A stretch of 64,000 bases of DNA from Candidatus Poribacteria bacterium (lineage in GTDB: Bacteria > Poribacteria > WGA-4E > JAJDTR01): positions 4,064,001 through 4,128,000 of the forward strand of contig CBDCTK010000002.1 of NCBI GenBank assembly GCA_965222225.1, written 5' to 3'. A program made the position numbers and the translations under genes. Below, piece by piece: positions 2,073-56,600 of the stretch. Below the pieces are notes generated by a model. It was not told where the DNA came from. It did no database searches and was given only the letters and a program-made list of their open reading frames with translations. The first letter of the stretch is position 1. Every line of letters starts with the position of its first letter.

Positions 2073-2120
2073 GAATCAAGGGAACGGATAGTGACCGCGA
2101 TAGAATTCCCATAGAGATCC
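2073..2120 (-). repeat. Modular GGATCTCTAT/TTGATC repeat copy inside a REP arm
   Basis: Reverse strand reads GGATCTCTATGG GAATTCTATCGC GGTCACTATCC GTTCCCTTGATT; flanked by GTGGGAGG and TCTCCGATTCCCGAC. Confidence 0.85.
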
Positions 2121-2230
2121 TCTCCGATTCCCGACATCACGAAGGCATTCCAATTCCCGACGATAGCTCGCGATTCGGAGATCGCTCCTACAAACCATTT
2201 GGTGTTCAACTGCGCAAATCCTAACGTTTA

Positions 2231-3562
2231 TTAAACTAGCCCCAACGCCTGCGCCGCCTCCCCAACAAGTATCATCGACCCCGTTATACAAATCAGGTCA
2301 CTTGGACTCGCGACTGATTTTGCTGTTGCAATCGCATCGCTAACCGATTGACTGATTCGGAGATCAGCTCCAATGTCCGACCACGTGCGGACGATTTCGT
2401 CAGCGCCGACAGCGCGAGGGTTGTCCCACATCTCGGTCGCGATGATTGTGTTCGACATAGGACATAGCAACTGCCCGATTCCTCGCAAGTCTTTGTCCCT
2501 CATGAATCCGACGATGAGGATTAGCTTTTCATAGTGAAAAACTTCTCCGATTGTGCCACATAACATCTCCACCGACGCCGGAGAGTGTGCGCCATCAAGC
2601 AGTATAGCGGGTGCGCCCCCAACCAACTGCAAACGACCGGGTAAACGTGCCTCCTTCAACCCGCCGTATACGCCCGCTGTGGAGATTTCATATCCCGACG
2701 CTTGAATCCTGTCGATACATGCGATAGCTGTCGCCGCGTTGATTGCTTGATGCACCCCCAATAGCGGCAAAAAGAGGTCTGGGTAAGATTCCTTCGGGGT
2801 GCGGACATCGAATGTCTGCCCATGAATATCGTGCACCCCGTGTTCCCATGTTACGTCCCGTCCGACCAGAGAGATAGGCGCGTTCCGATCTGCGGCCACA
2901 ACTTCAAAAACCGATTGCGCCTCCTCGGACTGCGGCGCAAGCACAACCGGGCGGTTCGGCTTGATAATTTCCGCCTTTTCCTTCGCAATGGCTTCGTGCG
3001 TGTTCCCCAAGATTGTCGTGTGCTCCAAGCTGATTGGGGTGATGACACTCACGAGCGGATTAACGATGTTGGTCGCATCCAGGCGCCCCCCGAGTCCGAC
3101 CTCGATAACCGCAAAATCTACCCCTTGGTCGGCAAAATAGGTAAACGCAAGCGCCGTATATATTTCAAAGAAAGAGACATCTCCGATTCCGTCTATCCCC
3201 GAAACCGCCTCTATCTCCGGCGTGAGCCGATTCACGCAATAGGCGAACGCGGCCACCGAGATAAGATTCGAGTCGATGCGACAGCGTTCGCGCGGGGTCA
3301 CCAGATGGGGAGAGGTAAACAAGCCCGTCTTGAAACCGGCATGGCTAAGTATCGACGCGATGAATGTAGCCGTGGATCCTTTGCCTTTGCTGCCGGCGAC
3401 ATGAACCACCTTGAGATTGCGGTGCGGATTCCCAAGTCGATTTAAGAGGCGAGAGATACGATCGAGGTTATAAAGGCGTGCTAGTCTGGAGAAATCGGGA
3501 CTTCTCTCGGCGTTGATAAAGGAATTGATATAGGCAAGTGCCTCTTCATAATTCAACATCAT
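2231..3562 (-). CDS. folC: Bifunctional folylpolyglutamate synthase / dihydrofolate synthase
   Basis: HVAGSKGKGS, FTSPHL, EVGLGGRLDATN and LDGAHS motifs. Confidence 0.95.
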   Translation of the reverse strand: MMLNYEEALAYINSFINAERSPDFSRLARLYNLDRISRLLNRLGNPHRNLKVVHVAGSKGKGSTATFIASILSHAGFKTGLFTSPHLVTPRERCRIDSNLISVAAFAYCVNRLTPEIEAVSGIDGIGDVSFFEIYTALAFTYFADQGVDFAVIEVGLGGRLDATNIVNPLVSVITPISLEHTTILGNTHEAIAKEKAEIIKPNRPVVLAPQSEEAQSVFEVVAADRNAPISLVGRDVTWEHGVHDIHGQTFDVRTPKESYPDLFLPLLGVHQAINAATAIACIDRIQASGYEISTAGVYGGLKEARLPGRLQLVGGAPAILLDGAHSPASVEMLCGTIGEVFHYEKLILIVGFMRDKDLRGIGQLLCPMSNTIIATEMWDNPRAVGADEIVRTWSDIGADLRISQSVSDAIATAKSVASPSDLICITGSMILVGEAAQALGLV

Positions 3563-3600
3563 GTGAAACGCAAAGAATGGCACATCGTGCGGCGTACAGT

Positions 3601-4875
3601 TTACGGCAAGAGACGAAGATCTTCATAGACGGGGAACTGGTGGGAAAGCTCTAAAACCTTAGCCTTGACACGTTTCTTGACTTCCGAGTCGCGCCGGCCT
3701 TCGAGTGTTTCGGTGATTAAATCGGCGATTACCCTCATTTCTGTCTCCTGCATCCCGCGTGTCGTCACCATCGGGGTACCGAGGCGGATACCGCTCGTTG
3801 TCACGGCTGAACGCTTGTCGAAGGGGATTGTATTCTTATTGACGATAATTCCCGATTCCTCAAGATGGTCTGCCGCTTGCCGTCCGCTTAATTTCTCATA
3901 CGATGTGCTCAGGTCGATTAACATCAAGTGATTCTCCGTGCCGCCGGTGATTGAACGAAGTCCGTTCGAATTGAGAGTCTCTGCCATCGCCTGCGCATTC
4001 TTGACCACTTGCGTCTGGTATTCTTTGAAGGCGGGTTCCATCGCTTCCTTGAAGGCAACCGCTTTGGCGGCTATGGAGTGCATGAACGGACCGCCCTGCA
4101 ACCCGGGAAACACAGCCCGATCAATGGCTTCGGCAAATTCTTGCCGGCACATCACCATAGCGCCGCGCGGTCCGCGCAAGGTTTTGTGCGTTGTCGTGGT
4201 TATCACGTCGCAATACGGAGCCGGGTCGGGATGGACATCTGCGGCGATAAGCCCGGCGATGTGGGCGATGTCAGCCAAGAGATACGCATTCACGGAATCG
4301 GCAATCGCTCGCCATTCCGCGAAATCGAACCGGCGCGAATAAGCTGTGGCGCCAACCACAATCAGCTTCGGGCGATGCTGCTCCGCGAGTTCCCCGACGG
4401 CGTTCATGTCGATGCGTTCCGTCTCGGGATCAACGCCATAGTGAACAATATTGTAGTACCTGCCCGAGAAGTTCTGCTTCAGCCCATGGCTCAGATGCCC
4501 GCCGTGATCGAGCTTCAGCGACAGAATGGTGTCGCCCGGTTCCAAAATCGCGTGGTAGGCAGCCATATTCGCCTGAGTGCCGGCGTGCGGTTGAACATTT
4601 ACATGGTCAACGCCGAAGAGTTGCTTGGCGCGATTTATCGCCAAGGATTCGACGCCATCCATGAACTGACAACCGTTATAGTAACGCGCTGCCGGATAAC
4701 CCTCGGCATACTTGTTCGCCAAGATGCTGCCCTGTGCCTGCATCACGGCTATACTGGCGTAATTCTCGGAAGGGATTAAGGTGAGGCAATTCTGCTGGCG
4801 TTCCAGATCCTGGAGCGTTATTTCGACAAGTTCGGGGTCAACTTCGTGGAGCGACCTATCCATCAAATTTTCCAA
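3601..4875 (-). CDS. glyA: Serine hydroxymethyltransferase
   Basis: [34 protein letters not shown] (PLP lysine), SGIRLGTP. Confidence 0.98.
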
Positions 4876-4956
4876 TATTCCACCGTGCTTCCGGATTCAA
4901 TTCTACGGCAAACATCCTATTGTCAACGACAATCTTCAATCGTCAAAATTTAACGA

Positions 4957-5050
4957 TTATTATGCGGTCGATTCATACCATCCCGGAGGGAAAAAATTGT
5001 ATCACAGATATTAGGCAGTTTCAAGTAAAATATCCGGCGCATCGCGCAGT
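4957..5050 (+). repeat. About 90-bp imperfect direct repeat, copy 1 (copy 2 at 8260-8350)
   Basis: Shared core ACAGATAyTAGGCrGTTTCAAGTAAAATATCCGGCGCATCGCrCAG. Confidence 0.75.
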
Positions 5051-5103
5051 CCCAATGCGCCGTTCCGCCGATAAAAATTCGAGACTTGAACCACTGGACG
5101 TGC

Positions 5104-5329
5104 GTAGGTTGGGTTGAACGGGAATCCATGAGAAATCACACGCGGAAGAAAGGTTCTCGAGATTTCATCCCACCAAAGAAATGCTGGAATTCGAGTGAAA
5201 CCCAACACGTTATCGCACACGCAGCAGTTGGGTTTCGCTATATTCGTGAAGACGAGTGGGGCACTGGAAAGCCGAATTCTCCTTTGAAACGCGATAGAAC
5301 TTGGTTATTGATTGCTCAACCCAACCTAC
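5104..5329. repeat. Inverted pair of GTAGGTTGGGTTGA...GAAACCCAAC REPs, each with a 79-nt loop
   Basis: Units at 5104-5206 (+) and 5227-5329 (-). Confidence 0.8.
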
Positions 5330-5346
5330 AGAAGACCCGCAATAAC

Positions 5347-5448
5347 GGGATTTCTATGGGATCGCTATCGCCCTAAGAGCTCTATCGCATTCGCTAATCG
5401 CTCATTTGATCCTATCCGGTCGGTTGATCTATTCGCTCCCTTTATCCC
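5347..5448 (+). repeat. Modular GGATCTCTAT/TTGATC repeat copy (long)
   Basis: GGATTTCTATGG GATCGCTATCGC..GAGCTCTATCGC ATTCGCTAATC GCTCATTTGATCC TATCC GGTCGGTTGATC... Confidence 0.85.
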
Positions 5449-5566
5449 CGCCCACTCGCAAAACCGACGCTACTCAAAGCAGTCGGGTCGGTTGTAAATT
5501 CGAACACTTGTTTTTTTACTTCTGCGAATATCTCCCAACTCACCGATAGGGAGGTTAGCTCCTTTT

Positions 5567-7574
5567 CTATTTCAAGATCAGCATCTTCCGCGTAGCGGAA
5601 AAATCCCCTGTGGTCAAGTGATAGAAATACACGCCACTTGCCACCCCTTCACCGAAGTTGTTGCGACCATCCCAGTACGCCGCCCTCCCCCGATCGGCAT
5701 AATACCCCGCCAACCGATGCCCCAAATCCAGCCGACGAACCATGAAACCACTGGCATCATAAATCGTCAGAGCGACCTCCGCATCTCTTGAGAGTTGGTA
5801 AGGTATCCACGTCTCCGGGTTGAACGGATTCGGATAGTTTGGCAACAATGCCGTCTCCTCTGGTGTCAAGGTGGCCTTGAGTTACTCTAGCAGCAGCACA
5901 CCCATTTGGGTCGTTGCATCCGTCAAGTCTAGCGTTTGCGCTTGAGCCAACCACTGTCCCACTTCTGTAGCCGTCAGCATCGCCAGTGCTCGTGGATCTG
6001 CGGACGGCGCCGCCGCGTTCCCAAACGCACCCGCAACCAACACCAAATCCAGGATGTTAACAACGCCATCCCTATTGACATCCGCCGCCAAGTCTGCCCC
6101 CGCATCGCCGAGATTCGACGCCACCGACACCAAATCCAAGATATTCACCACATCGTCCTCGTTCACATCCTCCGGAATCGGGGGAGGTTCGGCAGTTGCA
6201 TTAACGGACTGCTCCTCCAGTATCCCTGTTACAGATACAGTAACGGTGTTTATTCCCGGATTTGGTCCCAATGTTAGGATACTCTCCGCTCTACCGTTGC
6301 TATCGGTCATGGCGATTGTCGCACTGAGCGTCCCGCCGTCCGCCGTAACGGAGAATATGACCTGCGCACCTGGTAAGGGTTCGCCGGACTGGTCTCGCAC
6401 CTCCACCACAAACGCTTTTGCCAGCGCCGTCCCGGGCGCGCCCTGGTTGGTTGTCGCCCGAGATTATCTCCAATGACGTGGGTACTCGGACGCCTTCGGC
6501 GGTAAACGTCTGTTCACCCTGAACACCAGTTACAGTCACCACAACAGTGTTCGTTCCCGGTTCGGGATCCAACGTGAGCCTACTCTCTGCTCTGCCATTG
6601 GCATCAGTCGTGACGCTTGTCGCACTAAGCGTCCCACCCCCGCTGCTAACCGAGAATGTCACTTGAACCTCTGGTAAGGGTTGGTCGGATTGGTCTCGCA
6701 CCTCCACCACAAACGCTTTTTCAAGCGCCGTGCCCGGCGGTCCCTGTTGCTCGTCGCCCGAGATTATCTCTAGTTTCTTGGATGTCCGGATTCCTTCGGC
6801 GTTGAAGATTTGTTTTTCTTGAATCCCCGCAACAGACGCTTCAACGGTGTTTGTTTCCGCGCCTGGCCCTAACGTAAGAACGCTTTCCGTCCTGCCGTTG
6901 GCATTTGTCGTCGTGTTAGTGCTGCTGAGTGTCCCGCCGCCCGCCGTGACGGAGAATGTAACCGGCACCCCCTCAAACACAACACTATTCCCATCCTGCA
7001 CTTCAACGATAAACGGGCTTGCAAGTACTGCGTCAGGCGACCCCTCTTGGTCATCGCCTGAAACCATGCGAATTGTCCGGGGCATTCGGTTGTCGAAGAT
7101 TGCTTCAACCCCTCTTTCCTGTAAGGCAGGAATGTGTGTGCGGATGGATGCGTAGTTGAGTGAGTTTCCATGCACACCAACTTTGTCTTCACTCCCCAGC
7201 CCTGAGTTTGCTACTAGCGGCGAGAGGTCCGATATCGTGTTGCCCACAAGAGACAACCAAATCAGGTTGGTTAAGCCCGCCACAGGCGATATATCCGATA
7301 TCATGTTGTTCGCAAGGTTCAGGTTTGTCAGGTTGATGGCAAACTTCAACCCTGTTAAATTTCTAATATTGGCGTTTCTGGCTTCAAGGCGATCCAACGT
7401 TTCCATCTCGGCGGCGGTGATTGTGGCACCCGACGCTTTGTTGAGCGCCATCCCAATCGCAGCGCGGAGGTTGGAGTCGGGGATATCCACGACTTGTGCT
7501 GCTGTGGTTAGCGGTAGAGTAAGGAAAATTGACAGGAGAAAAGTGAATCGAAAAAGTTGTGTTTTCATTGACAT
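5567..7574 (-). pseudogene. Exported protein: internalin-like LRR, three Big_1/invasin-like Ig repeats, dockerin-like EF-hand, C-terminal FlgD/T9SS-like domain; interrupted
   Basis: Signal peptide, IPDSNLRAAI LRR cap, three ..TdANGRAES.LTLGP repeats, DVNxDGVVNILDLV, NYPNPFNPETWIPYQL. Split over three ORFs by a frameshift near 6446 and an in-frame TAA at 5882. Confidence 0.8.
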
Positions 7575-7835
7575 AGCTCCTATGAACTCCGTTTGTAGGG
7601 GATGTGGCTAGGCGCAGTAAATTTTCGGGGCATAGTGCGCGCACTCCAACGCCGACACAGGGTAACCAAAGGAGGCCTACGTGCTGAACACGGGATAATG
7701 CAGCAGGACTTACGCAAACAGCGAACAATGATAATTTTGGCAATAAATTCATGTTGCGGGGCTTTTGTAAGGATTTGAGATTATCAAATCGTAGATGGAA
7801 TCCCCTCAACGATCGTTATTCTCTACGGCGGCTCT

Positions 7836-8185
7836 AAGATCCTGTTTGAATAATAGGTGGCAAAGCAATTTCGGTCACTTTGGGCGCGGCTTTTTCATGT
7901 TTTTGTGGTCGCCTGCTATACACCTGTCAGGATTTCTATCGCACTCACTATTCGCTCGCTTGATCCCACGCTGGGGCTTAGATTCTTGGGTTTCGGCGTT
8001 TCTATAAACCTTCCGCCCCTCTGGGGCTTACAAAGGCTGGTGCGCAGTGCGCACCCTACGGGATTGCGCAAGAAAGAAATGGAGTTTTCAAGAAAAAAGG
8101 GATTTCTATCGCATTCGCTATTCGCTCATTTGATCGGTTTCAGAGCAAAAGTTCTACCCGAAATGAATTTTCAAACAGGCTTTAA
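7836..8185. mobile_element. Putative MITE with terminal inverted repeats, carrying REPs and two modular-repeat copies (7930-7967, 8099-8135)
   Basis: TAAGATCCTGTTTGAATAAT ... ATTTTCAAACAGGCTTTAA; a similar end occurs at about 32518. Confidence 0.45.
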
Positions 8186-8259
8186 GCAATCTTCGATCTG
8201 ACGGACGATTGAAAATCTTACTACCAACGTTTGCCTGTTCAACAGCGCAAGTCCCATCT

Positions 8260-8350
8260 TTATTATGCGGGCAATTCATATCGTCCAAGAAAAAAACTGT
8301 AGCACAGATACTAGGCGGTTTCAAGTAAAATATCCGGCGCATCGCACAGC
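8260..8350 (+). repeat. About 90-bp imperfect direct repeat, copy 2
   Basis: Matches 4957-5050. Confidence 0.75.
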
Positions 8351-8524
8351 CCGCAGGATAGGTTTAGCACATCGAAACAGACTACTTGGCACTCCATCGG
8401 CGTCCCGTTGCTGCTCGGTCTGGATTGACAAATCCAGACCGTTTTTCCTTCTCTTAAGAGGCGACATACCTAAACAAACCGGACTATCTCAAGATCTTGT
8501 TATTGCGCCCACTTTTGTAGGATT

Positions 8525-8614
8525 AATCAAGCGAGTGGACAGCGAAGGATCAAAGGAGCGAATAGCGACTGCGATAGTAAATCCTGATAACAAATCCCGT
8601 ACGATAGAGATCCC
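8525..8614 (-). repeat. Modular repeat copy inside a GTAGGA..TCTCCAGATCGCGAC REP
   Basis: Same module grammar; REP halves on both sides. Confidence 0.85.
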
Positions 8615-8923
8615 TCTCCAGATCGCGACTCCTGCAGTCGGGGTAAGATGCCCCTCCTACGGATACGGTTTGTCGGTAAGATTAGGCGAACGAATGGGAA
8701 GACGCGAAATATCGCAAATCTATCTATATGATGTGAATTCTGACAATCGAAGATTCGTTAGAATCACGTGCGAACGCCTCGGTACGGCACGAGATTTTCG
8801 TTGACGCGCGTTTTCGCGAATGCTATACTGCCGCTAGGTCTAGTCGCATCCTTCCCTCTGACGAGCGCCCCTCTTTCGCTGAAACACCGGCGCCGTCTCC
8901 CACACAATCTTTGAGGACTGTCA

Positions 8924-11122
8924 ATGGCTTGGCGTCTAATCCTTATTTTGTCCGTGCCTTTCATTGTGCTGCTCGGGTGCCAATCTCAAGATTCCCGGAA
9001 TACCCAAGATTCCGAGAGCACGAAGTCACCAGTTGAAAACTCACCCAAGTCAACCGGAAAGCTGAGCGCCCCCCAGACCCGCCCCGAAGATTGGGCGATG
9101 TTCATGCACGATGTGCATTTTTCAGGTAAGAGTCCGGATCAGACGCTCAAGCCGCCGCTAAAGCCGCGCTGGAAATTCAAGACCGGCGGTCCTATCCACG
9201 CAAGTCCCATTATTGTCGATGGCACGGTCTACGTCGGCTCGACGGATGGCAAACTGTACGCGCTTGATGCAAAGCAGTGGGGGGTGAAATGGACGTTCCG
9301 GAGCGGCGATGCCATCCGCTATGCCGCGGCGGTGTGGAACAATCACGTCTGCTTTAGTTCGAGAGACAATCATGTGTACGCCCTCGACGCCAAAACCGGC
9401 GAACTCGTTTGGAAATTCAAATCGGAGACTTGGATAGATTCACCGCCAATTATCTCCAACGGGCAGGTCTACATCGGTGCATTCACGCGCACGATTCACG
9501 TCATTAACGCAACAACGGGAGAAGCGGAGGGAAAACGCCGAAATCGCGTGCAGATTGACGGGATTGAATTCGGCTGTGCTCAAGGTAAATTGCGTCCAAT
9601 TATTCCTGAACACGAAGCTGAGTTGTGGCGGAGTTATGTGGATTACACCTACAGCTTTCCTGTCAGAGCCAATGGCGTGGTTTATATTGGCGCGCGAGAC
9701 AATCATATCCACGCCATCGACGCTGCATCGAAAAAGAAGGTCTGGTCATACGAGACGCGGGGGTTTGTTGACGCGGCTCCTGCGGTCTCCGATGGCTTGC
9801 TTTTCGTCACGTCCCATGATGGCTATGTATACGCCTTCGAGAATCGGACAACGGAATCCCCGCAACCGGATGAACGGCAAGTTGGAATCGTGGTGCACGA
9901 TGAGGCGCCTGTCTATCCTGCCAAAGACTCCGATTCGCCCGTGAAACTTCACCTCAACGACGGCGTCAAACTCCCCATTCTGAATGAAGGGGGTGGTTGG
10001 TATCAAGTTGAACTTCCGGACGGCGAATCCGGGTGGATGGACGAATTTGCCATCGGTAGGTTTGAAGAAACCGACGACGTGCAATTCAATACCTCGATTT
10101 GCTCCAACATCCGTACCTTGGAACTGATTGAGGGTGGTGAATATCCGTACTGGTCGCCCGACGGAAAAGCAATCGCGTTTTTCAAACGAACGAATCTCTC
10201 CGGTCAATATTGGAAAGCGAGCGAAATCTGGATTACGGATAGGGAAGCGAAGCGCTTTCGGAAGTTGTGCGAGGGGAGGTTCTACAATCCACACCTGTCA
10301 TGGACATTCAACGGCAATCTGCTCGCGTTTGAGGCACGTAAAGAGGGTGAGAGCGAAGTATGGACATTTGATCTGAAAACCGCGCGTCTAACCAACCTCG
10401 TGAGCGGCGATGCACCGGTATGGTCGCCAGTCGCGAACAAACTCGCGTTCAGGCGGTGGGAAAAAGGGTTCGATGTCGTGTATCGAATCAACAGCGATAC
10501 AACCGGCTTGGCGCCAATTGCTCGTATCCCGATTGAAGGAAGGGTCGGCGCGTTCAGTTTTTTGGATAAGCCGTCTTGGTCGCCGGACGGAGAGCGAATC
10601 GCCATTGGGCTGGATCACCAGCACTACAAGTCGGGGTACGCCCGCATTCGATTGCAGAACGTCAACGGAACAAGGCTCGGAGAGATACGTACCCAGCATC
10701 AGCGCGTCAAGCAGATCAATTGGTCGGCGGACGGAACAGAACTTGCCTATGTGCTGCTCGGAAGTATTCGCCCCGACCGATTGCTGGACAAACGCCTTCA
10801 CGTCACGGATGTCAATGAACGAAGCCGCACAAGGATTCTCAAACACACGTCGCCGTCATGGTCGCCCCAAGGAAAGTACCTCGCCTATATGGAGCGTGAG
10901 GATTGTATGGGCTTGCAATGGAAGGTGTGGATACTTGATATGGAAACGAATCGGAAGCGGGCTGTTGCACGAGCGGCGGGGGTTCTCACCTCCATTACAT
11001 GGTTGCCCGGAGGGAAACAACTCTGTCTATGGCACACCTCCGACTACCTGCGCGGCGGAGAGTATAAACCCGCCACGACCAAGGGATGGGTTGCGGATGT
11101 CGCCGTGGTGCCGGTGCGTTGA
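8924..11122 (+). CDS. Lipoprotein: PQQ/BamB-like beta-propeller, SH3-like domain and TolB/PD40-like propeller
   Basis: LLGC lipobox, YVGSTDGKLYALDA repeats, GWYQVELPDGESGWM, WSPDG repeats. Confidence 0.85.
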   Translation: MAWRLILILSVPFIVLLGCQSQDSRNTQDSESTKSPVENSPKSTGKLSAPQTRPEDWAMFMHDVHFSGKSPDQTLKPPLKPRWKFKTGGPIHASPIIVDGTVYVGSTDGKLYALDAKQWGVKWTFRSGDAIRYAAAVWNNHVCFSSRDNHVYALDAKTGELVWKFKSETWIDSPPIISNGQVYIGAFTRTIHVINATTGEAEGKRRNRVQIDGIEFGCAQGKLRPIIPEHEAELWRSYVDYTYSFPVRANGVVYIGARDNHIHAIDAASKKKVWSYETRGFVDAAPAVSDGLLFVTSHDGYVYAFENRTTESPQPDERQVGIVVHDEAPVYPAKDSDSPVKLHLNDGVKLPILNEGGGWYQVELPDGESGWMDEFAIGRFEETDDVQFNTSICSNIRTLELIEGGEYPYWSPDGKAIAFFKRTNLSGQYWKASEIWITDREAKRFRKLCEGRFYNPHLSWTFNGNLLAFEARKEGESEVWTFDLKTARLTNLVSGDAPVWSPVANKLAFRRWEKGFDVVYRINSDTTGLAPIARIPIEGRVGAFSFLDKPSWSPDGERIAIGLDHQHYKSGYARIRLQNVNGTRLGEIRTQHQRVKQINWSADGTELAYVLLGSIRPDRLLDKRLHVTDVNERSRTRILKHTSPSWSPQGKYLAYMEREDCMGLQWKVWILDMETNRKRAVARAAGVLTSITWLPGGKQLCLWHTSDYLRGGEYKPATTKGWVADVAVVPVR

Positions 11123-11254
11123 GAACAAGGGAATGGATAATGAGTGATCGCACGACCGAATAGAATCAAACGAGTGGATAGATCAAATGAGCGATTAGCA
11201 AGCTGGATTTACTATGGGAGTTCTATCGCACTCATTATTCATTCGCTTGATCCC
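11123..11254. repeat. Two oppositely oriented modular repeat arms between convergent genes
   Basis: 11123-11200 (-) and 11205-11254 (+). Confidence 0.8.
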
Positions 11255-11290: not shown

Positions 11291-11333
11291 CATTACGTAT
11301 TACGTATTACGTATTACGCACTTACGCATTACT
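11291..11333 (+). repeat. Heptamer tandem repeat (ATTACGT)n
   Basis: cattacgtattacgtattacgtattacgcacttacgcattac. Confidence 0.8.
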
Positions 11334-11930: not shown

Positions 11931-12029
11931 GTAGGTTGGGTTGAACAATCAAGCGAGTGGATAACAAGTAATCAAGGGAATGGATAATGACCGCGATAGA
12001 GTTCCCATAGAGATCCGGTGAAACCCAAC
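11931..12029. repeat. REP whose loop is a modular-repeat copy (11947-12016, minus strand)
   Basis: GTAGGTTGGGTTGAAC [modules] GGTGAAACCCAAC. Confidence 0.85.
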
Positions 12030-12283: not shown

Positions 12284-12428
12284 GAATCAAGCGACTGAAT
12301 AAGGATCAGGGGAGTGGAAAGCGAGTGCGATAGAGATCTTAAGGCGATAGTAAATCCCGTGCGATAGAATTCCCATAGAGATCCCCGCGATAGAGATTTT
12401 TCTTGCACCGCCCGCGATAGAACTCCCC
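12284..12428 (-). repeat. Longest modular repeat copy (about 10 modules)
   Basis: Repeated GCGATAG.... units on the + strand. Confidence 0.85.
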
Positions 12429-12551
12429 CTGCCCCGCATTGGAGAGACTTGATTAACGCTAAAAACGCACTGCAAATATAGGGAAATGGTCTAAGATGAA
12501 AACAATGTTCGGAAGTTTTCTGTCATCTGTGCACCTTGCCTCTCGAAGTTT

Positions 12552-13634
12552 TCAGTGACCTCCGTGTGAGTCGGAGGGCAATACCAAAACCTTCACCGAG
12601 CCGTGTTCATCACGTCCGGCAGCGACGGCAAACGCCTGTTGAATCTCATCTAGTGGGAAACGGTGAGTGATTAACGGCATTGGGTCGAGTTTGCCGGCCG
12701 CCATCAGGTCGAGCGCAATCTGAAACTCCCGCTTTCCATCTCGCCGACCGTAGCAGAATGACCACGTGAGGGTCAATTCACGACCCCTTGCGAACCGCGT
12801 GTCCAACTCAAGCGCGCCGGTGTGTCCACCGACCATACAAATTTTCCCCCGTATCGCGGCAATCTGCGTCGCTTGCTGAAGCGTTTGTGCCCTTCCGCCG
12901 ACCGCCTCGAAGACGACATTCGCGCCGCGACCGTTCGTCCACGCTTGGACTGCCTCGACCGCGTCGGCTGCGTCTACGTTAATCGGGAAGATGCCGATCG
13001 ACTCTTTGGCAATTTGTAACGGCGCGTCCGGTTTGCCCAAGACAGCGACGGACACCGCACCAGCCAGTTGCGCCATCTGCGCGAGCGCCAAACCGACCGG
13101 ACCGCTGCCGATGACCGCCACGCTATCGCCCGGATGGACTGGCGCCATCGACAAGGCGTGGACGGCTACGGCGTAAACTTCAGCCATTGCTCCCGCCTCG
13201 AACGAAACCCGATTAGGTAATTCGTAGACGTTATCTTCCGGCGCAACCATATACTCGGCAAATCCCCCGCTGAAAACATTGCCCAGACGTTTTCCTCTGG
13301 AACCGCCGATATGAATGAGCTTTGAACACAGATTGTAATTGCCGTTTAGACACTCAGGGCAATTGTTGCATGGGACTGTCGGCTCGACGACGACCTGATC
13401 GCCGATCTGATATTGATGAACCGCCACCCCAACCCCGGCGACCCGTCCCGTGAGTTCGTGTCCGCCTGTTGCAGGTGGACGTGGTTTTTCCGGCTGATGG
13501 TGATAACCGTGCAGGTCACTGCCGCAGATGCCGGTTGCTCGGACTTCAACGAGTACCTCGCGCTCCTCCGGCACCGGCTTTGGCACAGTTTCGACTCGAA
13601 TATCTTTACCTCCATAAAAACGTGCAGCTCTCAT
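12552..13634 (-). CDS. Zn-dependent medium-chain dehydrogenase (threonine/sorbitol dehydrogenase-like)
   Basis: GICGSDLH, GHE, CxxCxxCx7C, GSGPVG. Confidence 0.92.
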   Translation of the reverse strand: MRAARFYGGKDIRVETVPKPVPEEREVLVEVRATGICGSDLHGYHHQPEKPRPPATGGHELTGRVAGVGVAVHQYQIGDQVVVEPTVPCNNCPECLNGNYNLCSKLIHIGGSRGKRLGNVFSGGFAEYMVAPEDNVYELPNRVSFEAGAMAEVYAVAVHALSMAPVHPGDSVAVIGSGPVGLALAQMAQLAGAVSVAVLGKPDAPLQIAKESIGIFPINVDAADAVEAVQAWTNGRGANVVFEAVGGRAQTLQQATQIAAIRGKICMVGGHTGALELDTRFARGRELTLTWSFCYGRRDGKREFQIALDLMAAGKLDPMPLITHRFPLDEIQQAFAVAAGRDEHGSVKVLVLPSDSHGGH

Positions 13635-14057
13635 CTGTTCCTCCGGGGTTAATTTAACGTGAGTTCGACGTAAGAAGCTACGTGACGAGTGATGAGTGAT
13701 AGGTGAATTTTCACCTCTCACTCCTCCCAGATTTTGTCGGCATATTTGAATGAATGCGATGGTATCGACACCAGCGGCACTGTGTCGGGGACGACCACTG
13801 AAGGTGACGATGCCGCTGGACGAAGCAGAGCGTCACGAATGGCAGGCCATGTCGAGTTATGACTCGTTTGCGTGGCTTGCCAGCCAACTGCGCCAAGCAT
13901 TAGAGCCATGGCAGCGTGGCTCTGGATGGCAATTGAGCTGTCCCAAGGCATCTCGCCAAACCATCGAAGCAGTTGTGGTGTACGAAAGTTCCTTTCCCCG
14001 TCTAATATTGGCGATTCTGACGCCGACGTTTTTCAGCCCCTTGGTTTCGGGCGATAC

Positions 14058-14619: not shown

Positions 14620-15930
14620 TGTACTGCCATCGGAAATTTAGGCCATAATCTTAACCAAGATTGTGATACAATTTCCAATCAGATTGAAAGGAGATTCCGA
14701 TGGCTAAACGAAGGAGATTCACATCCCAATTTAAGGCTGAAGTCGTTATTGAGGTACTTACCGGTCAAAGTTCACAAGCGGAACTTTGTCGGCGGCATAA
14801 CCTCAGCCAAGAGCAATTATCAAAGTGGAAACACCAACTTCTTGACAACGCAGCGACTCTCTTTGAATCCACTGACAAGCAATCCACTGATTATAGAGAA
14901 CGGATTGCTCAACTGGAGCAGCTTGTTGGGATCAAACGAACGATCAACTGAGTGGATAACGAAGGCGATAGCAAATCCCATAGTGAGTGCGATAGGGATC
15001 CCTAGTGAGTTTGGCGTTAGACATCCAAAAAAAAGCCTTGACTTTGCTCAATTGAATCGGTCTCAAAAGCGACAGATGGTTGAAGCTTTGCACACCGATT
15101 ACCCGGTTCGGCACATTTGTGATGTACTCGGCTTCAATCGGAGTAGTCTCTATTATCAACCGAAGCATGACCCCATTGAACAGGTGCTACGCGATGAGAT
15201 TGAGCAACTGGCAGCCCGTTATCCGAAGTATGGCTATAGACGCATCACTCATCTGCTGTTGCGCATGGGCTACTCGGTCGGTTACACACGCGTCGCCCGA
15301 CTGATGAGAGAAGAGAATCTGTTAGTTGCTGTCAAACGTGCCTGTCAAACCACTCAATCGTTGCGCGGTCATAGTCAATGGGACAATCAGCTTGAGAACC
15401 TTAACATCTGTCGCCGAAATCAGGTTTGGGTCGGTGACATTACTTATGTCCGACTCAAGGGACAATTCATCTATGTTTCGGTGTTAATGGATGTTTTCAG
15501 TCGAGTGGTAAGAGGTTGGCAACTGAGTCAACACTTGACAGAACCGCTCACATTGCAACCGTTGCAAAAGGCATTAAGTCAAGGCAATCCAGAAATTCAT
15601 CATAGTGACCAGGGCGTTCAGTATCCTTCAACAGCCTATATTTCAACTCTGATTGAACATGGAATTGACATTTCCTTAGCCCATAGAGGGCGTCCGTGGG
15701 AGAACGGCTATGCTGAAAGACTTATCCGAACCCTCAAGGAAGAAGAAGTGTATCTCAATGAGTACGATGATATAATGGATGCCAGAGAGCGAATCGGTCA
15801 TTTTATTGTACAAGTTTATAACCGGAAACGACCTCACTCGGCGTTAGGTTATTTGACACCGGTTGAATTTGAGCAACAATACTTGTCTTAACTTTGCTTA
15901 GTTGTGGTCTAAATTCTCGTTGGCACTTCA
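14620..15930 (+). mobile_element. IS3-family insertion sequence; orfA disrupted by a modular-repeat insert
   Basis: Inverted repeats TGTACTGCCATCGGAAATTTAGGCCA and TGAAGTGCCAACGAGAATTTAGACCA (20/26). orfA HTH from 14700; A8G slippery site at about 15027; orfB DDE motifs WVGDITY, HHSDQGVQY, ENGYAER, HSALGYLTP. Confidence 0.92.
14928..15010 (-). repeat. Modular repeat copy inserted in IS3 orfA
   Basis: Interrupts LEQLVG / SLALDIQKKA. Confidence 0.9.
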
Positions 15931-16065: not shown

Positions 16066-16297
16066 GGGATCTCTATCGCGTGGGATCTACTATCGCACTC
16101 CCTATTCGGTCGTTTGATCCTATTCGGTCACTTGATCGCACCTACCGTTAGTACCTATTTAGGTTTGTGACATCGGCGGAGGTGAAGAGATTTCTATCGC
16201 AGTCACTTTGGGATTTACTATCGGGATTAGCTATCGCAGTCATTGTCCATTCCCTTGATCCTTCGCTATCCACTCAGTTGATCGTTCGTTTGATCCC
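16066..16297 (+). repeat. Two modular repeat copies (16066-16137, 16187-16297), each splitting a REP hairpin
   Basis: GTGCGGTTAGA[..]GCACCTAC and CGGCGGAGGTGAA[..]CCCCGCCTAC. Confidence 0.85.
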
Positions 16298-16734
16298 CGC
16301 CTACGGGTTTGGTGCTTCACGGCTTTCCGTTCAACCCAACGTTGTACGTTTGTACAAAGTCGAGCTAAGTATATCATTGTATACGATTTCCGCCGCACGA
16401 CAATCCACGCGAATCACTGAAACCTTGAAATCGGAGACGACTGCCCTACGAATTGGCGATCGTTCTATTGACGTGACCAACAGTATATCATACAATCACA
16501 TGAAGACGTGAACGTTCCCTCATTCAGATGCGATTCAAGGGGGTGTTTGTTCCGTTTTTGGGTTTTTCTGCACCTGAAAGCAAATCGTGATAATGAAAAG
16601 GTTATTTGCATCTTTTTCGCTGCGTGGTAACGTGTTTGTGCGACTAGCGAAAAGCATTACGATTTTTAGCGGAGCAGTAAAGTGTAGAGCGAGGATCAAA
16701 ATAGAAGCGTACGCGTACGCTGGAGGTTTTCGCC

Positions 16735-17439
16735 ATGAAGAAATTCGCATTTACAATGTCAGCAGTTTTCGTGCTATTGAGTGGTATTGTGATAATGATA
16801 AATCCATCGGCGCAAGAGACCGAACTAGCGCAGATCGTCTTCCACTCCAATCGGGACGGGAATAAAGAAATCTACGTCATGGACGCCGATGGGAACAATC
16901 TACGCAGGTTAACAACAAATCTATGGGCTGATTCCGATCCGGCATGGTCCCCTGATGGCCAAAAGATTGTCTACCATTCCACGTGGCGTGGGCGCCCTAC
17001 AGTCTTCGTCATGGATGCCGATGGTAACAATCAACAAAAGTTAACAAACAATAAAATTAGAGCGTTTGATTCAAGTCCGGCGTGGCCCCCTAGCGGTCAA
17101 AAGATTGCCTTAGTCTCCACCCGTGATGGCAACAAAGAAATCTACGTCATGGATCCCGACGGCGAGCATCAACTCAGACTAACAAACAATAAAAGGGATG
17201 ACAACTATCCAGCCTGGTCACCTGACGGTCAACAGATTGTTTTCGTGTCTAGGCGGGACGGGAACTTTGAAATCTACGTCATGAATTCCGATGGGAGGAA
17301 TCAAACTAGGCTGACAAACAATCCCGCTACGGACAGCGAACCGGCTTGGTTCGATCCCCGTTTTGCACGGGCGGTGGAGCCTCCAGGTAAGTTGAAGTCT
17401 ACCTGGGGAAAGATCAAGGGATATCAAAGGAAGGAATGA
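16735..17439 (+). CDS. Secreted TolB-like PD40-repeat protein with C-terminal AVEPxGKLxxTWGxIK motif
   Basis: Repeats of RDGNxEIYVM..G.N..RLT and PAWSPDG; signal peptide. Confidence 0.9.
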   Translation: MKKFAFTMSAVFVLLSGIVIMINPSAQETELAQIVFHSNRDGNKEIYVMDADGNNLRRLTTNLWADSDPAWSPDGQKIVYHSTWRGRPTVFVMDADGNNQQKLTNNKIRAFDSSPAWPPSGQKIALVSTRDGNKEIYVMDPDGEHQLRLTNNKRDDNYPAWSPDGQQIVFVSRRDGNFEIYVMNSDGRNQTRLTNNPATDSEPAWFDPRFARAVEPPGKLKSTWGKIKGYQRKE

Positions 17440-17498
17440 ATCAAGCGACCGATCAAGTGACCGAATAGGGAACGCGATAGAGTTCCCATAGAGATCCC
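17412..17498 (-). repeat. Modular repeat copy overlapping the 3' end of the TolB-like gene
   Basis: GATCAAG of the K-I-K codons runs directly into modules ending ...CCATAGAGATCCC. Confidence 0.75.
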
Positions 17499-17678
17499 GA
17501 AGGTGTGTAGAAGGGCGGCACCCCAAAGACCACAAGCCCCGGAGGGTTACAGGTATACGTCTTATTAGGAGCGATTTCCAAATCGCGACGAATCTTCCTC
17601 CTACCCGCGTCCGTTTGTAGGGGACGGCCCCTGTGCCGTCCCACGACAACTTGTAGCCGCCACGTTTTAAGAACAAAA

Positions 17679-18045
17679 ATGTACATCAGATATCTCAGAT
17701 ATCAAGGAACCAAAAACAGCGGCAAAACCGGCAAGCCTAGCGGTATTTTTGCCGTCGCTTGGCACATGAAACAGAAAGGACGCCTCACCCAGAGAGAAAT
17801 AGAAGAGATCCAACAAATCGAGAACTGGTTCGAGGACAATTTGCCCAATCCTCCGTTCTACCAGAAATCCAACCCCCGGAAAGCCATTACCTGGTTTAAA
17901 CGAAACAACGGCAGAGATGATTGAGAAAATAGAGCAGGTAAAAACTATCATCGAACGAAACGGCTGGAAAATTGAGGTCGAATATCACGAAAACGCTCCG
18001 GGCAAAATCATCTACGAAGACGAATATCAAATTGCCACCATCTGA
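17679..18045 (+). pseudogene. Hypothetical protein, apparently frameshifted near 17910
   Basis: WFEDNLPNPPFY...AITWFK continues in another frame as MIEKI...PGKIIYEDEYQIATI. Confidence 0.55.
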
Positions 18046-18150
18046 AGGCACCTGACGATTAGGTTATTTTCCCCGAAACCGATCTGCCGACTGAATGTAA
18101 TAGGTACACTCCGTATGCCGTAACCCGCACAAAATCCGAGGACCAACCCA

Positions 18151-43400: not shown

Positions 43401-43440
43401 GGGGATTTCTATCGCACTCGCTATCCGCTCGCTTGATCCC
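43401..43440 (+). repeat. Minimal modular repeat copy in a REP loop
   Basis: TGCGGGGCAA[GGGGATTTCTATCGCACTCGCTATCCGCTCGCTTGAT]CCCCGCCTAC. Confidence 0.85.
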
Positions 43441-43705
43441 CGCCTACCGGGCCTGGCGTGGAAGATAACGGTTGGTATCGGTTTTTTTATAGTTGTATAA
43501 TTGAAAGACATTATACGCAATATCATTCAAGCGAAGTGGTATAAGCGTCCAGAGTCGTCGGCGCGAAAAGTGGGATGGACAATTCACTCGGTTTTTGATA
43601 GAATGGAAATAGCAATCTGAGTCCGCGTCCGGGACCTCATCGTGTGATGTGTTAAACATAGTACAATGGGTGAGGCGAATCCCCGAATGGAGAGGTTGTG
43701 ATATT

Positions 43706-49819: not shown

Positions 49820-50059
49820 ATCAGGTTTTGTAGTGAAATCAATAACTGTTAATACACTGTGGTAGGTTCGGTTTCCTAACCGAACCGGTATTTATCCAGT
49901 CTCGTAGAGCGGTTGGAAAGAGATCTCTGTCGCCCTTGCTGTTCACTCGGTTGATTGCCTACCGAAATATGTGTAAATATGAATGGAATTGACTATAATC
50001 GGGAACGTGAATTGAAGGTGTGTCGTTTTGAAATGGTAAAGGTAGGGCTTACTTGATGC

Positions 50060-52128: not shown

Positions 52129-52148
52129 CACCAAGTTATGCCCCATCT

Positions 52149-52543: not shown

Positions 52544-52569
52544 AGTATTTTTCCTTCTGTTAAAAGATG

Positions 52570-53343: not shown

Positions 53344-53379
53344 ATTAGCTATCGCCCTCCCTATTCGGTCGGTTGATCC
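53344..53379 (+). repeat. Modular repeat copy between the RBS and ATG of the 53343 gene
   Basis: ATTAGCTATCGC CCTCCCTATTC GGTCGGTTGATCC. Confidence 0.8.
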
Positions 53380-54385: not shown

Positions 54386-54589
54386 AACCGTTGGCGGCGC
54401 TCAATAATTAGCCGATTGATGCAGCCGCTTCTGGTCAAAAAATCGCCGTAGTCTCTCAATTGACGAGAAGCTAGGTTCAACCAAGTCATAATCGTTAAGA
54501 TTAACCTCCTCATGCTTGACACTACTCCAAATCTATCCAGCCGAGGTACCACTGTCTGCTTTTCGGCGTAAGGCCTGGTTCTCTCCCCG

Positions 54590-56518
54590 TTACCACCACG
54601 CGGTGAAGTTGTAGGTCTGGGTTTTAAACACAATTCCAAAAAGCGCCCAGAAACCCCCCACCGCAAATTCGCCCAAAATCATGCCGAAGAATAGGGGCAG
54701 CACTTGTCGATGCAACTTCAATCCGCCGTGTCTTAAAACCAGCCACTTAATCAGCCACGCCAGGAAGAACATCGACCAAAGATCCCGCATTCCGTATGTA
54801 CTGGATACTGCGTACCCCGCCGGGTGAAAGGGCCACCAGAGGAATTGCCACCGCATAACCATCAGGAAGATTCCGAACAACAGACCGTATGCAAAGAATC
54901 CCATGCCCATAAAATCTGTTGATGTCGGATAGGTCAACCATCCCTGTAAACGCTTGAACGGTTCTAGCCCGGCCCAAGTCATGGTAACGCCACTGTGTTG
55001 ATACGCCGAATCCAATACCGCCCAAAAGGCGACCACCGTGCCAAGCACCGTGGCAATCAGCATAGCGAGAAGGACACGACGGTTGTTCATCCGCGATTGA
55101 TCGGCAAGCTTGAATCCCTCAAGTTGATGCGGCATGACATCGCTGTAGTGGGCACGGGTGAGGAACCAGAAGAAAGATAGAACAGACAGGTTACCCGGGC
55201 CTAATTTTCGTGTGCCCATTGCACCTACCATGAGGTATTCCGGTCCTGCGAAGTGTAGGTCGTGGATAGGGGAGCCTACCTCGGCACGGATCCGGGTAAT
55301 GCCGATTTCCGTCATCAAGTACAGTGCGAAAAAGATTCCCGCTGCCCACATGGACATGCCCGCCTTCCAGCAGAACACCACTAGAAAAGCAAAGCCAAAT
55401 ATCAACCCAAGCACGGCGGTTCGATAACGAAGCGGCTCCGCAGCCCCAGCATCTCTGTGTTCTCGCGCACCAAGATGCAGTATCGATCTGAATAGTCGTG
55501 CCAAATGCCCTCGACCGATCCACAAGGCGATGACGAAAAGCGCGATGTACGCTCCCGTGCTCTGCTCCGGAAATTCCGGACGCTGGCGAAAGCCCATCGC
55601 GCTGCCCAAGACTAACTGTGCTTTCCAAAAGAAGAAAAAGAACCAGCAGGAGAAAGCTATGTCGAGCGGAATGAGAAAGATGAGCCCCAACATAAACGGA
55701 CGGAAGGTCAGCGCCATATGACCTATGGCATCCCACGGCTTTGTTGTAAATAGAGTGCCTAGATTAATCGGTTTGAACCGAAGGTATGGAATCGAGGGAA
55801 AGAAGAAGTGAAACCCGTTAATCATTCCGATTAGGCTTACCACGCAGAAACTAATCAAAAACAGCCTATTCGTGAACAGTTTGGATGCGGGGTTCGTCAT
55901 CTGGAAGGGGAGTTGAACAATCGGGAATGACAATCGCTCCCGATCCGACCACTGCTTGCGAATGATTATATTGACACAGATCATCACAAACATCAATACA
56001 CATATAAAGGCAGACCATATGAGTACCGGCGCTAGCCACGCTTCGATGTGTCGTGCGGTATAAAGGGACGATTCCGTTTTTACCCCTGTGATGTACCCAT
56101 CCAGAGTCCACTGGTCGGTGATGGCAAGCCATTTGGGAATGTAGCGGCCGAAGAGTTCGCTCCATTCGTTCTCCGGGGTGGCCAAGCCAAACGGGGCAGC
56201 CATAGTCGGCGGCAGGATTTGAATCATGCTGTGACCGACCAGCGCTGCCGACTGGCTCAGCATAATGTAGAGCGTGACCAGTTCGCCCTGGCGAAAAACC
56301 AGTTTGGGAGAGATTTTTCGCAGCGGGATGTTAAGAACGATTAGGATGAGTAGGTTGAAGACGACGTTGAAAAAGAGCGCAACGAGTGTCGAGTGGGCGG
56401 AATAGTAGATCGCTTCCATCTGCATGATCCAGTATGAGTTTAGCGGGATCAGCAGAATGGCGATCAGTATTGCGCGCCACGTCACAGCAGTGTCCTGATT
56501 TGGTTTGTCAAGGGTCAT
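54590..56518 (-). CDS. Polytopic membrane protein, DUF6785/DUF6784-like putative transporter
   Basis: ATPENEW, RKQWSD.ERL.FP, RIRAEVG.P.H, WWPFHPAGY; RBS GGAGG. Confidence 0.75.
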   Translation of the reverse strand: MTLDKPNQDTAVTWRAILIAILLIPLNSYWIMQMEAIYYSAHSTLVALFFNVVFNLLILIVLNIPLRKISPKLVFRQGELVTLYIMLSQSAALVGHSMIQILPPTMAAPFGLATPENEWSELFGRYIPKWLAITDQWTLDGYITGVKTESSLYTARHIEAWLAPVLIWSAFICVLMFVMICVNIIIRKQWSDRERLSFPIVQLPFQMTNPASKLFTNRLFLISFCVVSLIGMINGFHFFFPSIPYLRFKPINLGTLFTTKPWDAIGHMALTFRPFMLGLIFLIPLDIAFSCWFFFFFWKAQLVLGSAMGFRQRPEFPEQSTGAYIALFVIALWIGRGHLARLFRSILHLGAREHRDAGAAEPLRYRTAVLGLIFGFAFLVVFCWKAGMSMWAAGIFFALYLMTEIGITRIRAEVGSPIHDLHFAGPEYLMVGAMGTRKLGPGNLSVLSFFWFLTRAHYSDVMPHQLEGFKLADQSRMNNRRVLLAMLIATVLGTVVAFWAVLDSAYQHSGVTMTWAGLEPFKRLQGWLTYPTSTDFMGMGFFAYGLLFGIFLMVMRWQFLWWPFHPAGYAVSSTYGMRDLWSMFFLAWLIKWLVLRHGGLKLHRQVLPLFFGMILGEFAVGGFWALFGIVFKTQTYNFTAWW

Positions 56519-56564
56519 GTTCTGCGATTTTCCTCCGGCGTTCCGATAATCATCCATTCTGAAA

Positions 56565-56600
56565 GGATCTCTATCGCCTTCGCTATCCGATCAGTTGATT
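56565..56600 (+). repeat. Modular repeat copy supplying the stop codon of the upstream dehydrogenase gene
   Basis: GGATCTCTATCGC CTTCGCTATCC GATCAGTTGATT. Confidence 0.8.

Follow-up and report, generated by a model that had tools for sequence, protein, structure and literature searches.

A structured unit of about 35 nt, inserted whole and arranged in arrays, in Candidatus Poribacteria

The small dispersed repeats (SDRs) of Nostocaceae, reportedly described by Elhai et al. in 2008, are said to comprise units of 21–27 nt in the sequence families SDR1–8. According to PMC5861425, HIP1 is the insertion site of SDR5, and SDR-like repeats were not seen in HIP1-rich cyanobacteria other than Nostocaceae. 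Here we describe a comparable element in a stretch of 64,000 nt (the window; positions 4,064,001–4,128,000 of contig CBDCTK010000002.1, assembly GCA_965222225.1) from a metagenome-assembled genome (MAG) of Candidatus Poribacteria (genome G000; contig C2, 5.64 Mb). The initial annotation of the window had listed 25 variable arrays of short ordered modules, designated a, a', b and c. These arrays are composed of a lineage-specific, non-coding, structured unit of ~35 nt, which is inserted whole and turns over between sister species. We favour, with moderate confidence, the interpretation that the arrays are nested copies of this mobile unit, that its folded single strand is recognised by a protein, and that the HUH nucleases linked to repetitive extragenic palindromic (REP) elements count as candidates for this role.

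SDR4, SDR5 and SDR6 and the Poribacteria unit are alike in being very small, non-coding, insertion-like and lodged in other repeats. Both can have a GATC-containing palindrome as host, HIP1 for SDR5 (PMC5861425) and GAGATCGC of a REP for the present unit. Compared by description, the unit differs from the SDRs in its phylum, its size of ~35 nt, its nested multi-module arrays and its covarying mini-hairpin with conserved TC.

REPs, bacterial interspersed mosaic elements (BIMEs) and REP doublets forming hairpins (REPINs) are, like the unit, short, extragenic, high-copy, mosaic and lineage-specific, and form hairpins, as the unit probably does (REPs as portrayed in PMC3116915 and PMC6006769). Both they and the unit are presumably handled as single-stranded DNA. 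Unlike REPs, the unit has no GTAG/CGTC tag, its stem consists of 2+2 pairs around a GA/GA centre, and the stem sequence is free. Unlike in the system of REPs and REP-associated tyrosine transposases (RAYTs), no cognate RAYT flanked by the unit was found among the six Y1_Tnp matches checked. Unlike in REPINs, neighbouring units mostly share their orientation (271) and are not inverted doublets (63). The genome itself carries several RAYT genes and at least five families of GTAG/CTAC-tagged REPs (GTAGGAGCGATCTCCGAATCGCGAC, GTAGGGTGCGCACTGCGCACC, GTAGGAGGGAATTCCGATTCCC, GTAGGCGGGGCATCTTGCCCCGC, GTAGTAGGCA and others). Because these REPs serve as its targets, the unit behaves as a parasite of REPs.

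The IS200/IS605 insertion sequences (IS) and the palindrome-associated transposable elements (PATEs) resemble the unit in the lack of target duplication, a fixed orientation, a short target motif alongside (a putative one for the unit), dependence on a hairpin and a replication-related strand bias (described partly in PMC6006769). Unlike them, the unit has one hairpin instead of two subterminal ones, is several-fold smaller, has junctions that are sometimes imprecise and has no linked TnpA, and its structured strand lies mostly opposite the G-rich strand.

IS1397 and others target REPs (works cited in PMC3116915). They have in common with the unit the use of REP hairpins as specific insertion targets; they encode their own transposase, whereas the unit is 35 nt long and non-coding.

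BOX elements of Streptococcus pneumoniae are organised as boxA-boxBn-boxC, with modules of 45–59 nt repeated as like copies. Ordered modules, a variable internal number, a position between genes and foldability are common to BOX and the unit. In contrast to BOX, the unit has modules of 11–14 nt, no two adjacent hairpins are alike, and modules are multiplied by nesting.

The initial annotation had held that the arrays fit neither a miniature inverted-repeat transposable element (MITE) nor a REP nor a CRISPR array. All three exclusions stood: the examined pairs showed no terminal inverted repeats with duplication, tag and cognate RAYT were lacking, and the modules abut without spacers in 980 arrays per genome. 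We place the element among the miniature non-autonomous mobile repeats of the REP/BIME/SDR kind. No published account of such repeats in Poribacteria was found among the matches listed in a literature search.

A covarying hairpin in a unit of about 35 nt

The comparison set consisted of 41 genomes from one order of Poribacteria and several genera, with 10 genomes from the genus of the window. A strict 29-nt pattern of the unit (CTATCGC..TC..TATyC..TC..TTGAT) had 13 occurrences in the window and 522 in C2. The same pattern reversed gave no occurrence in any of the 41 genomes. When strict module tokens (a, A, B and C) were chained into arrays, C2 yielded 980, versus 9 in the reversed C2 sequence used as control. 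The most frequent 10-mers genome-wide came from this family as well (ATCTCTATCG, 445 copies).

A covariance model (R1), trained on 130 different copies of 40 nt (13 of the window and 117 of other Poribacteria loci), was applied to the window with filters off. It matched 20 of the 25 sites at E<=4e-5. The training set included 13 of these 20; the others were the matches at 5375, 12301, 16224, 25796, 27465, 32742 and 49920. Four sites gave weak matches (11123, 20243, 27690 and 36360; E 0.07–0.47) and one gave none. An additional weak match at 802–825 (E 0.44) was probably due to chance. All 25 listed sites showed the described motifs when read. The counts from the pattern, the arrays and the covariance model indicated that the arrays are real and far above chance.

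In the polarity used by the annotation, the basic unit of ~35 nt consists of (A)GGGATyTCTATCGC, followed by nnTCnn-TATyC-nnTCnn and by TTGA(TC). One mini-hairpin can be formed by modules b and c together, and its central TC is constant in both arms (GA on the complement). The annotation had reported no terminal inverted repeats, and had overlooked this internal one, made up of the b and c arms. The structured strand reads GATCAA...GCGATAG...ATCCC, with two pairs, a GA opposite a GA, two further pairs and a GRATA loop. The GA dinucleotides, the loops and GATCAA/GCGATAG are constant on this strand; the four Watson-Crick or wobble pairs vary yet stay complementary.

For the genome of the window, 949 instances were picked solely by their loop and TTGAT. 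Watson-Crick pairs at arm positions 1, 2, 5 and 6 numbered 594, 744, 799 and 767, compared with 276, 334, 322 and 444 after shuffling, and 3–4 pair types were present at each of the four positions. At least 89 different complementary arm pairs occurred among 761 stringent hairpins.

The 130-copy alignment, which includes copies from at least 10 genomes, gave the same picture. The cells were paired in 97.6% of cases. Both sides had changed in 237 cells, against 37.8 +/- 5.5 in the shuffled alignments, none of which (0 of 500) reached 237. The covariation score was 0.588, and at most 0.118 when the partners were slid.

G.U pairs on the GATCAA strand accounted for 61 cells, and all non-standard cells together for 22. 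The appearance of wobble pairs on the GATCAA...GCGATAG strand marked it as the strand under structural constraint. The other arm pairs (a/A, A/B, C/next-B and C/next-C) showed no excess of pairing over shuffles, which argued for one true hairpin per unit.

By base-count arithmetic, the bases flanking GA were mostly a pyrimidine before and a purine after. Such a context favours tandem sheared G.A pairs, and we infer that the two GA dinucleotides pair in this way. No GTAG was present inside the unit, either in the 522-copy consensus or in the 130-copy alignment; GTAG or CTAC nearby belonged to the host REP. The ends of some copies showed a 5–6 nt resemblance (GGGATC/GATCCC).

Insertion into REPs, other sites and earlier copies

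The annotation had described the arrays as written into existing DNA. This was borne out by empty and filled paralogues, empty orthologous sites and copies within copies. The REP GCGAnnnGGAG-ATCG-CTCCTAC was found in 101 empty copies, with the 4-nt centre, and in 27 filled copies. The latter contained one or more units at the same place, in one orientation and with many stem variants, and the commonest gain was 34–35 nt.

The preference extended to other REPs. CTAC was present within 18 nt downstream of 258 of the 980 arrays (46 expected), and GTAG in 25 (46.5 expected); about a quarter of the arrays sit in GTAG-tagged REPs, with one polarity. In the REP types that were read, the structured strand was always on the GTAG strand, 4–8 nt behind the tag. 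GTAG/CTAC-tagged REPs lie at window 2034–2056 and 2170–2192 and at many places genome-wide, and the CACCTGTCGCCCC...GGGGC REP flanks an IS200-like RAYT gene at C2:3080372–3080716.

Paralogous empty sites were found for the units at window 8099, 7930 and 43401. Three of them, for 8099, read ...AAAATAC^TCGG..., and that for 43401 is an empty REP at C2:3008317.

Empty and filled alleles were also found when orthologous loci were compared, at 2073 and 56565. The REP at 2073, between the first two genes of the window, was empty in G009 and G002. In G000, G003, G007 and G005 it was filled, by strings of modules that were related without being the same. The gap at 56565 was empty in G002 and G003, contained one unit in G000, and had different fillings in G001 and G009. 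At 49920, a block of ~100 nt was absent from G005, and G009 lacked the unit and had other sequence in its place. Behind the stop codon at 11122, each species had a different set. The synteny comparison with G005 covered window 1–11107.

The annotated absence of target-site duplications was confirmed by the empty/filled pairs: no duplication was seen in the 27 filled REPs and six other pairs. After TTGA, T was found in 97% and C in 92% of the cases, whatever the target, and the right junction fell within a 1–4 nt microhomology with the (G)ATC end of the element. Given the loss of 1–4 target bases in several pairs, this TC may be part of either the target or the element. GATC as a duplicated target, as in the insertion of a restriction-like fragment, was rejected, since the left junctions do not restore GATC.

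These junctions bear on the main rival explanation, which was also the second suggestion of the annotation: a replication-linked patching without dedicated enzyme. A nascent strand stalled at a REP or element hairpin would switch by (G)ATC microhomology to another copy, from which ~35 nt (sometimes part of a unit) would be copied before it switched back, in the manner of microhomology-mediated break-induced replication (MMBIR) or fork stalling and template switching (FoSTeS). Consistent with patching, the right junction was always in the 1–4 nt shared with the (G)ATC end, and 0–4 target bases were lost with no duplication. The polarity kept in partial units and mosaics, the origin of adjacent hairpins from different variants, the choice of hairpins as targets, the correlation of orientation with GC skew and the lack of an enzyme gene that tracks the element are also as expected from it.

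On the other hand, two families of Poribacteria share conserved internal positions that have no role in microhomology, namely the TC of each arm and the loops TATyC and TATCGC, and the stem is kept through compensatory change. The conservation of these internal positions and of the stem suggests that the unit itself is recognised. In addition, the 27 REP copies were filled in exactly one register. Some genera also lack the element although they possess REPs, RAYTs and Dam-type methylases, which the mere absence of a seed copy could explain too. Taken together, we regard patching as unlikely, and retain insertion of the whole unit as our interpretation.

Insertion of one unit into another was evident in two pairs of sequences. 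The locus of an IS3-family transposase (rve, HTH_21) at window 14700–15891 contains a nested array (14928–15010) in its upstream part. Its paralogue at C2:2516727–2518037 (84% identity) has the outer unit alone, at C2:2516975. The array at 14928 corresponds to the single unit of the paralogue with a 36-nt unit between TAT and TC of its loop. At 56565, G005 has the unit of G000 with a second unit nested in its loop.

From these two pairs, module a' (CTAT-GG) was recognised as the left junction of a loop-inserted unit. The extra c module corresponds to the right half of the outer unit after its displacement, and the grammar AaABCC represents a nested pair. Units in opposite orientation were found inside the GCGATAG part of other units, with TCGATA after TTGA in 23 of 536 copies.

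The module order a-A-B-C was kept across the 980 arrays of C2, in support of the annotated polarity from a to b to c. The grammars included ABC (359), AB (104), BC (95), aA (64), aABC (31), ABCBC (30) and ABCC (26). Between arrays no more than 300 nt apart, the 63 inverted neighbours had their A modules facing in 52 cases and their C modules in 11.

The annotation had attributed skipped, repeated and restarted modules to stuttering, in which a single short template of RNA or DNA would be copied reiteratively by a reverse transcriptase (RT)- or telomerase-like activity at nicks or breaks. The modules are indeed ordered, with skips, repeats and restarts, and the TTGA-TC end is more regular than the other end, both of which would fit such synthesis. 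The restarts and module a' were, however, accounted for by nesting. Among 84 pairs of adjacent hairpins, none differed at <=1 of the 8 variable positions, where 3.4 would be expected from random pairs. Since adjacent hairpins are never alike, the arrays do not appear to grow by slippage or stuttering, and one template could not supply the >=89 complementary stem variants.

The search for a suitable enzyme was no more favourable to stuttering. The only RVT_1 gene of the genome (C2:4499560–4501572) encodes a 670-aa Abi-like RT, a weak match with a YVDD motif, and lies away from any array. Co-occurrence of its relatives with the element was patchy. They were present in 8 of the 41 genomes, including five of the nine other members of the genus, one of four from the second genus with the element and one of seven from a genus without it, and several contain stop codons. 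We consider stuttering highly improbable, and nested insertion of whole units the better explanation of the arrays.

Two further claims of the annotation held in part. That no two copies are identical held for the window with its 13 strict copies and failed genome-wide, where the 522 strict copies comprised 166 distinct 29-mers and one 40-mer was present 18 times. A constant length was indeed lacking in the arrays, but the basic unit gave a net gain of 33–36 nt in hand-worked empty/filled pairs.

The 25 sites of the window

The sites are listed below by window coordinates and strand, with the E values of R1 in brackets.

2073–2120, minus: array reading c-b-A-a' on the plus strand, within a GTAG-tagged REP hairpin (3e-17)
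5347–5447, plus: long array of a', A, A and b-c, then two partial b-c (5375–5414, 7e-14; 5347–5366, 0.0075)
7930–7966, plus: single ABC unit in a CACCTGT/GGGGC-type REP of a larger MITE-like repeat (8e-18)
8099–8135, plus: single ABC unit (1e-18)
8525–8614, minus: two hairpin units and repeated A-type tails (7e-18)
11123–11204, minus: degenerate multi-hairpin array right behind the stop codon of gene 8924–11122 (weak, 0.13)
11205–11253, plus: a'-A-B-C array, head to head with array 11123–11204 (9e-19)
11947–12016, minus: two hairpin units with A and a' tails (2e-16)
12284–12429, minus: longest array, two hairpin units then six A-type tails, abutting a GTAGTAGGCA-type REP (12301–12340, 4e-8)
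14928–15010, minus: nested pair within the IS3-family transposase locus (3e-17)
16066–16139, plus: A-A-B-C-(loop+arm)-C array (8e-17)
16187–16298, plus: long array, several A units, then b-c, b-c and c (16224–16263, 8e-13)
17412–17498, minus: several c-type units, one full hairpin, A and a' tails (1e-17)
20243–20269, minus: tail-only fragment of A and a', with no hairpin (weak, 0.47)
22131–22183, minus: one hairpin unit and two A tails, adjoining a GTAGGGTGCGCA-type REP (7e-14)
25781–25879, minus: two hairpin units and four A-type tails (25796–25835, 3e-13)
27387–27405, plus: 19-nt b-c remnant, the weakest listed site (no R1 match)
27449–27521, minus: two hairpin units with degenerate loops and two A tails (27465–27504, 7e-14)
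27690–27731, no strand assigned: short mixed fragment with tail modules in both orientations (weak, 0.47)
32736–32762, minus: hairpin unit without tail, abutting a GTAGGTTGGGTTGAG-type repeat (4e-5)
36360–36397, plus: degenerate single ABC unit (weak, 0.07)
43401–43441, plus: single unit of canonical form, within a GCGGGGC-AAGAT-GCCCCGC-CTAC REP at its loop/3' arm (best match, 1e-19)
49920–49959, plus: degenerate ABC unit within a block of ~100 nt (1e-6)
53344–53379, plus: single ABC unit without the usual GGGAT start (2e-15)
56565–56600, plus: single ABC unit between two genes, in the gap of 33 nt (3e-14)

Other repeats and variable segments were noted in the same region. A heptamer tandem repeat (ATTACGT x 5.7) lies at 11292–11332, just behind the 11205 array. 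A separate MITE-like repeat at 32760–32880, bounded by GTAGGTTGGGTTGA...AACCCAACA, often adjoins arrays, in relatives as well. The segment 5104–8651 (~3.5 kb) is absent at that place from G005, G004, G001 and G009; it holds a Big_1/LRR surface-protein gene (6300–7574), a member of a large paralogous family, and array-rich flanks. The zinc alcohol-dehydrogenase gene at 12540–13654 has a 98%-identical copy ~12 kb upstream of the window (C2:4051808–4052922).

Public sequencing runs were compared through the Logan contigs of runs X3, X4, X10 and X15. Contigs of these runs end at the repeats. Two contig joints, 8096>8134 (skipping 37) and 14931>15012 (skipping 80, with 9 other letters), match what empty forms would give; paralogues or other strains may be their source, and they were not counted as evidence. 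Other contigs from independent runs cover stretches that bear arrays (X3 record 20 over 8899–11225; X10 record 7 over 16845–18116). The element is also present in 15 of the 41 genomes, which derive from different assemblies, and in named MAG records of several projects. An assembly or library artefact (adapters, barcodes), in favour of which no observation was made, thus has a negligible probability.

Distribution, strand and candidate enzymes

The module counts, extended genome-wide and to related MAGs, gave the 522 strict copies in C2 and 15 positive genomes, single-contig chromosomes included. The strict pattern was present in all 10 genomes of the genus of the window, with 330–824 copies each, and in all four of one genus (g4) of another family, with 122–139 copies each. 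A third genus had two strict copies. None was found in 26 genomes across seven further genera of this order (g3 and g5–g10). When one genome per species was scanned, at least 80 loci were obtained, and all those listed were from Candidatus Poribacteria MAGs; a cyanobacterial origin, which the GATC-rich palindromes had seemed to suggest, was rejected on these grounds.

In the second genus the hairpin and GATCAA/GCGATAG are alike, and the tail AAGA-CTATCGC replaces GGGATCT-CTATCGC. In L048 (g4), the units form close inverted doublets with their tails facing, as in REPINs, an arrangement that is rare in the genome of the window.

With respect to genes, 858 of the 980 arrays were wholly outside crude open reading frame (ORF) calls, which span 78% of C2. 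Their orientation relative to flanking genes in co-directional settings was unbiased (325 vs 282). Divergent intergenic regions contained 182 arrays and convergent ones 109, both kinds of region being equally common. No match to Rfam 15 at gathering score was found in the window, and viral contigs had no exact match to a 30-nt pattern.

This setting could point to a structural motif selected by the host, such as a site for a nucleoid, replication or RNA-binding protein, held by selection and not by selfish spread. The strong conservation of structure and constant bases would agree with this, as would the position of 858 of 980 arrays outside crude genes, the richer divergent regions (182 vs 109) and the persistence of the family in two Poribacteria families. 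The differences in presence between orthologous sites of sister species would not. The same applies to the copies within other selfish repeats, within each other and within the IS3 transposase locus, to the lack of preference relative to transcription, to a copy number that varies 2.5-fold within the genus and to the lack of an Rfam family at gathering score. A host-selected motif is improbable on this evidence, and we return to the mobile unit.

The orientation of 648 of the 980 arrays agreed with the local GC skew, with the structured strand mostly opposite the G-rich strand. From this agreement, the lack of gene-orientation bias and the presence of Y1_Tnp genes in all element-rich genomes, we infer that the element acts at the level of single-stranded DNA rather than RNA.

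The unit inserts whole, without target duplication, and its ...TTGA end would be joined before a target (T)C. It favours two kinds of target: in GTAG-tagged REP hairpins, the loop or the arm next to GTAG, and in earlier copies, the TAT^TC loop. In the proposed mechanism, repeated self-insertion and later decay yield arrays that look modular and restarted. The fixed bases combined with a free but complementary stem point to a trans-acting protein, which would recognise the constant positions and the structure on single-stranded DNA. The HUH Y1 nucleases (RAYT/IS200-type) of the parasitised REP systems suggest themselves as candidates, since it is in their substrates that the unit lands, with register and strand fixed.

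As the annotation had stated for RT, the window encodes no such enzyme, and no Y1 transposase either; the sole transposase found in it is the IS3-type gene, itself a target. Y1_Tnp genes were present in all 14 genomes with more than 100 copies. The six Y1_Tnp matches in the genome of the window are RAYT/IS200-type genes or remnants. RAYT/IS200 proteins of this genome are encoded at C2:3080372–3080716, 2564343–2564672 and 3727739–3727966, and intact orthologues exist for the genes at 3088937 and 3560268. Units were found beside two of the Y1 genes, either inside the REPs of those genes or flanking a truncated gene.

The truncated gene is a RAYT C-terminal remnant (C2:3560268–3560543; 92-aa frame, without the HUH part), which is bracketed directly by two inverted units. 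The element may have been associated with the deletion that truncated it. This remnant was rejected as the cognate enzyme, since its seven orthologues in the genus have GTAG REPs of their own, with no units at their sides. A Dam-type methylase (PF02086), considered as a link to the GATC ends, did not discriminate either, being present in 34 of the 41 genomes.

Several observations weigh against the interpretation of a protein-recognised mobile unit. A comparison of Y1_Tnp, RVT_1 and PF02086 across the 41 genomes brought no dedicated transposase to light. Of the 41 genomes, 34 have Y1_Tnp, including those of element-free genera (g6, 7 of 7; g3, 8 of 10), and a dedicated HUH transposase at family level was rejected because the profile does not discriminate between the two kinds of genera. 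GTAG REPs of its own, and not the element, flank every full-length RAYT that was examined. Of the seven orthologues of the RAYT remnant, five have uninterrupted frames of 195–225 aa and two have an internal stop.

The junctions and the arrays provided similar points. Junctions varied: several nested cases and REP types 4 and 5 had lost 1–4 target bases, which HUH transposition does not usually entail. There are many partial units (BC 95, CC 40 and tail-only), whose origin calls for more than whole-unit insertion. Empty REPs share the strand bias (58/95 and 44/66), which may thus be inherited from the targets; as independent evidence of single-strand transposition, the GC-skew bias was weakened accordingly.

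Predicted stability gave no support either. For the structured strand of the 40-nt element, the mean minimum free energy (MFE) was -5.8 kcal/mol as RNA, compared with -5.2 for shuffles, and -1.8 with DNA parameters, compared with -2.2 kcal/mol. These values were indistinguishable from those of shuffles, and folding would need a protein or special G.A stacking.

A more specific form of the interpretation is that the unit is a 35-nt single-stranded hyperparasite of the REP/RAYT system, recognised by way of its unusual mini-hairpin (2 pairs, tandem sheared G.A, 2 pairs, GRATA loop), integrated into the REP arm by a HUH nuclease bound at a GTAG-REP or an undescribed enzyme, and forming nested 'Russian-doll' arrays through its own loop. 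We propose this tentatively, as a possibility that falls short of an even chance.

In these sponge symbionts the element outnumbers every other repeat, with 330–824 strict copies per genome in the genus. For genome analysis, the arrays break short-read assemblies at the repeats and can pass for regulatory motifs or CRISPR-like arrays; they are also useful strain markers. How DNA of ~35 nt moves has been a standing question since the cyanobacterial SDRs were described, and it is now testable, with a minimal unit, a structured strand, targets (GTAG-REP arms and its own loop) and natural empty/filled pairs on offer.

Many intergenic regions of these bacteria are remodelled by the element at a faster pace than that at which their flanking genes diverge. 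If the hyperparasite interpretation is true, the unit would be one of the smallest mobile DNAs known, and its recognition code (a structure and ~20 fixed bases with a free stem) and its insertion chemistry would be new.

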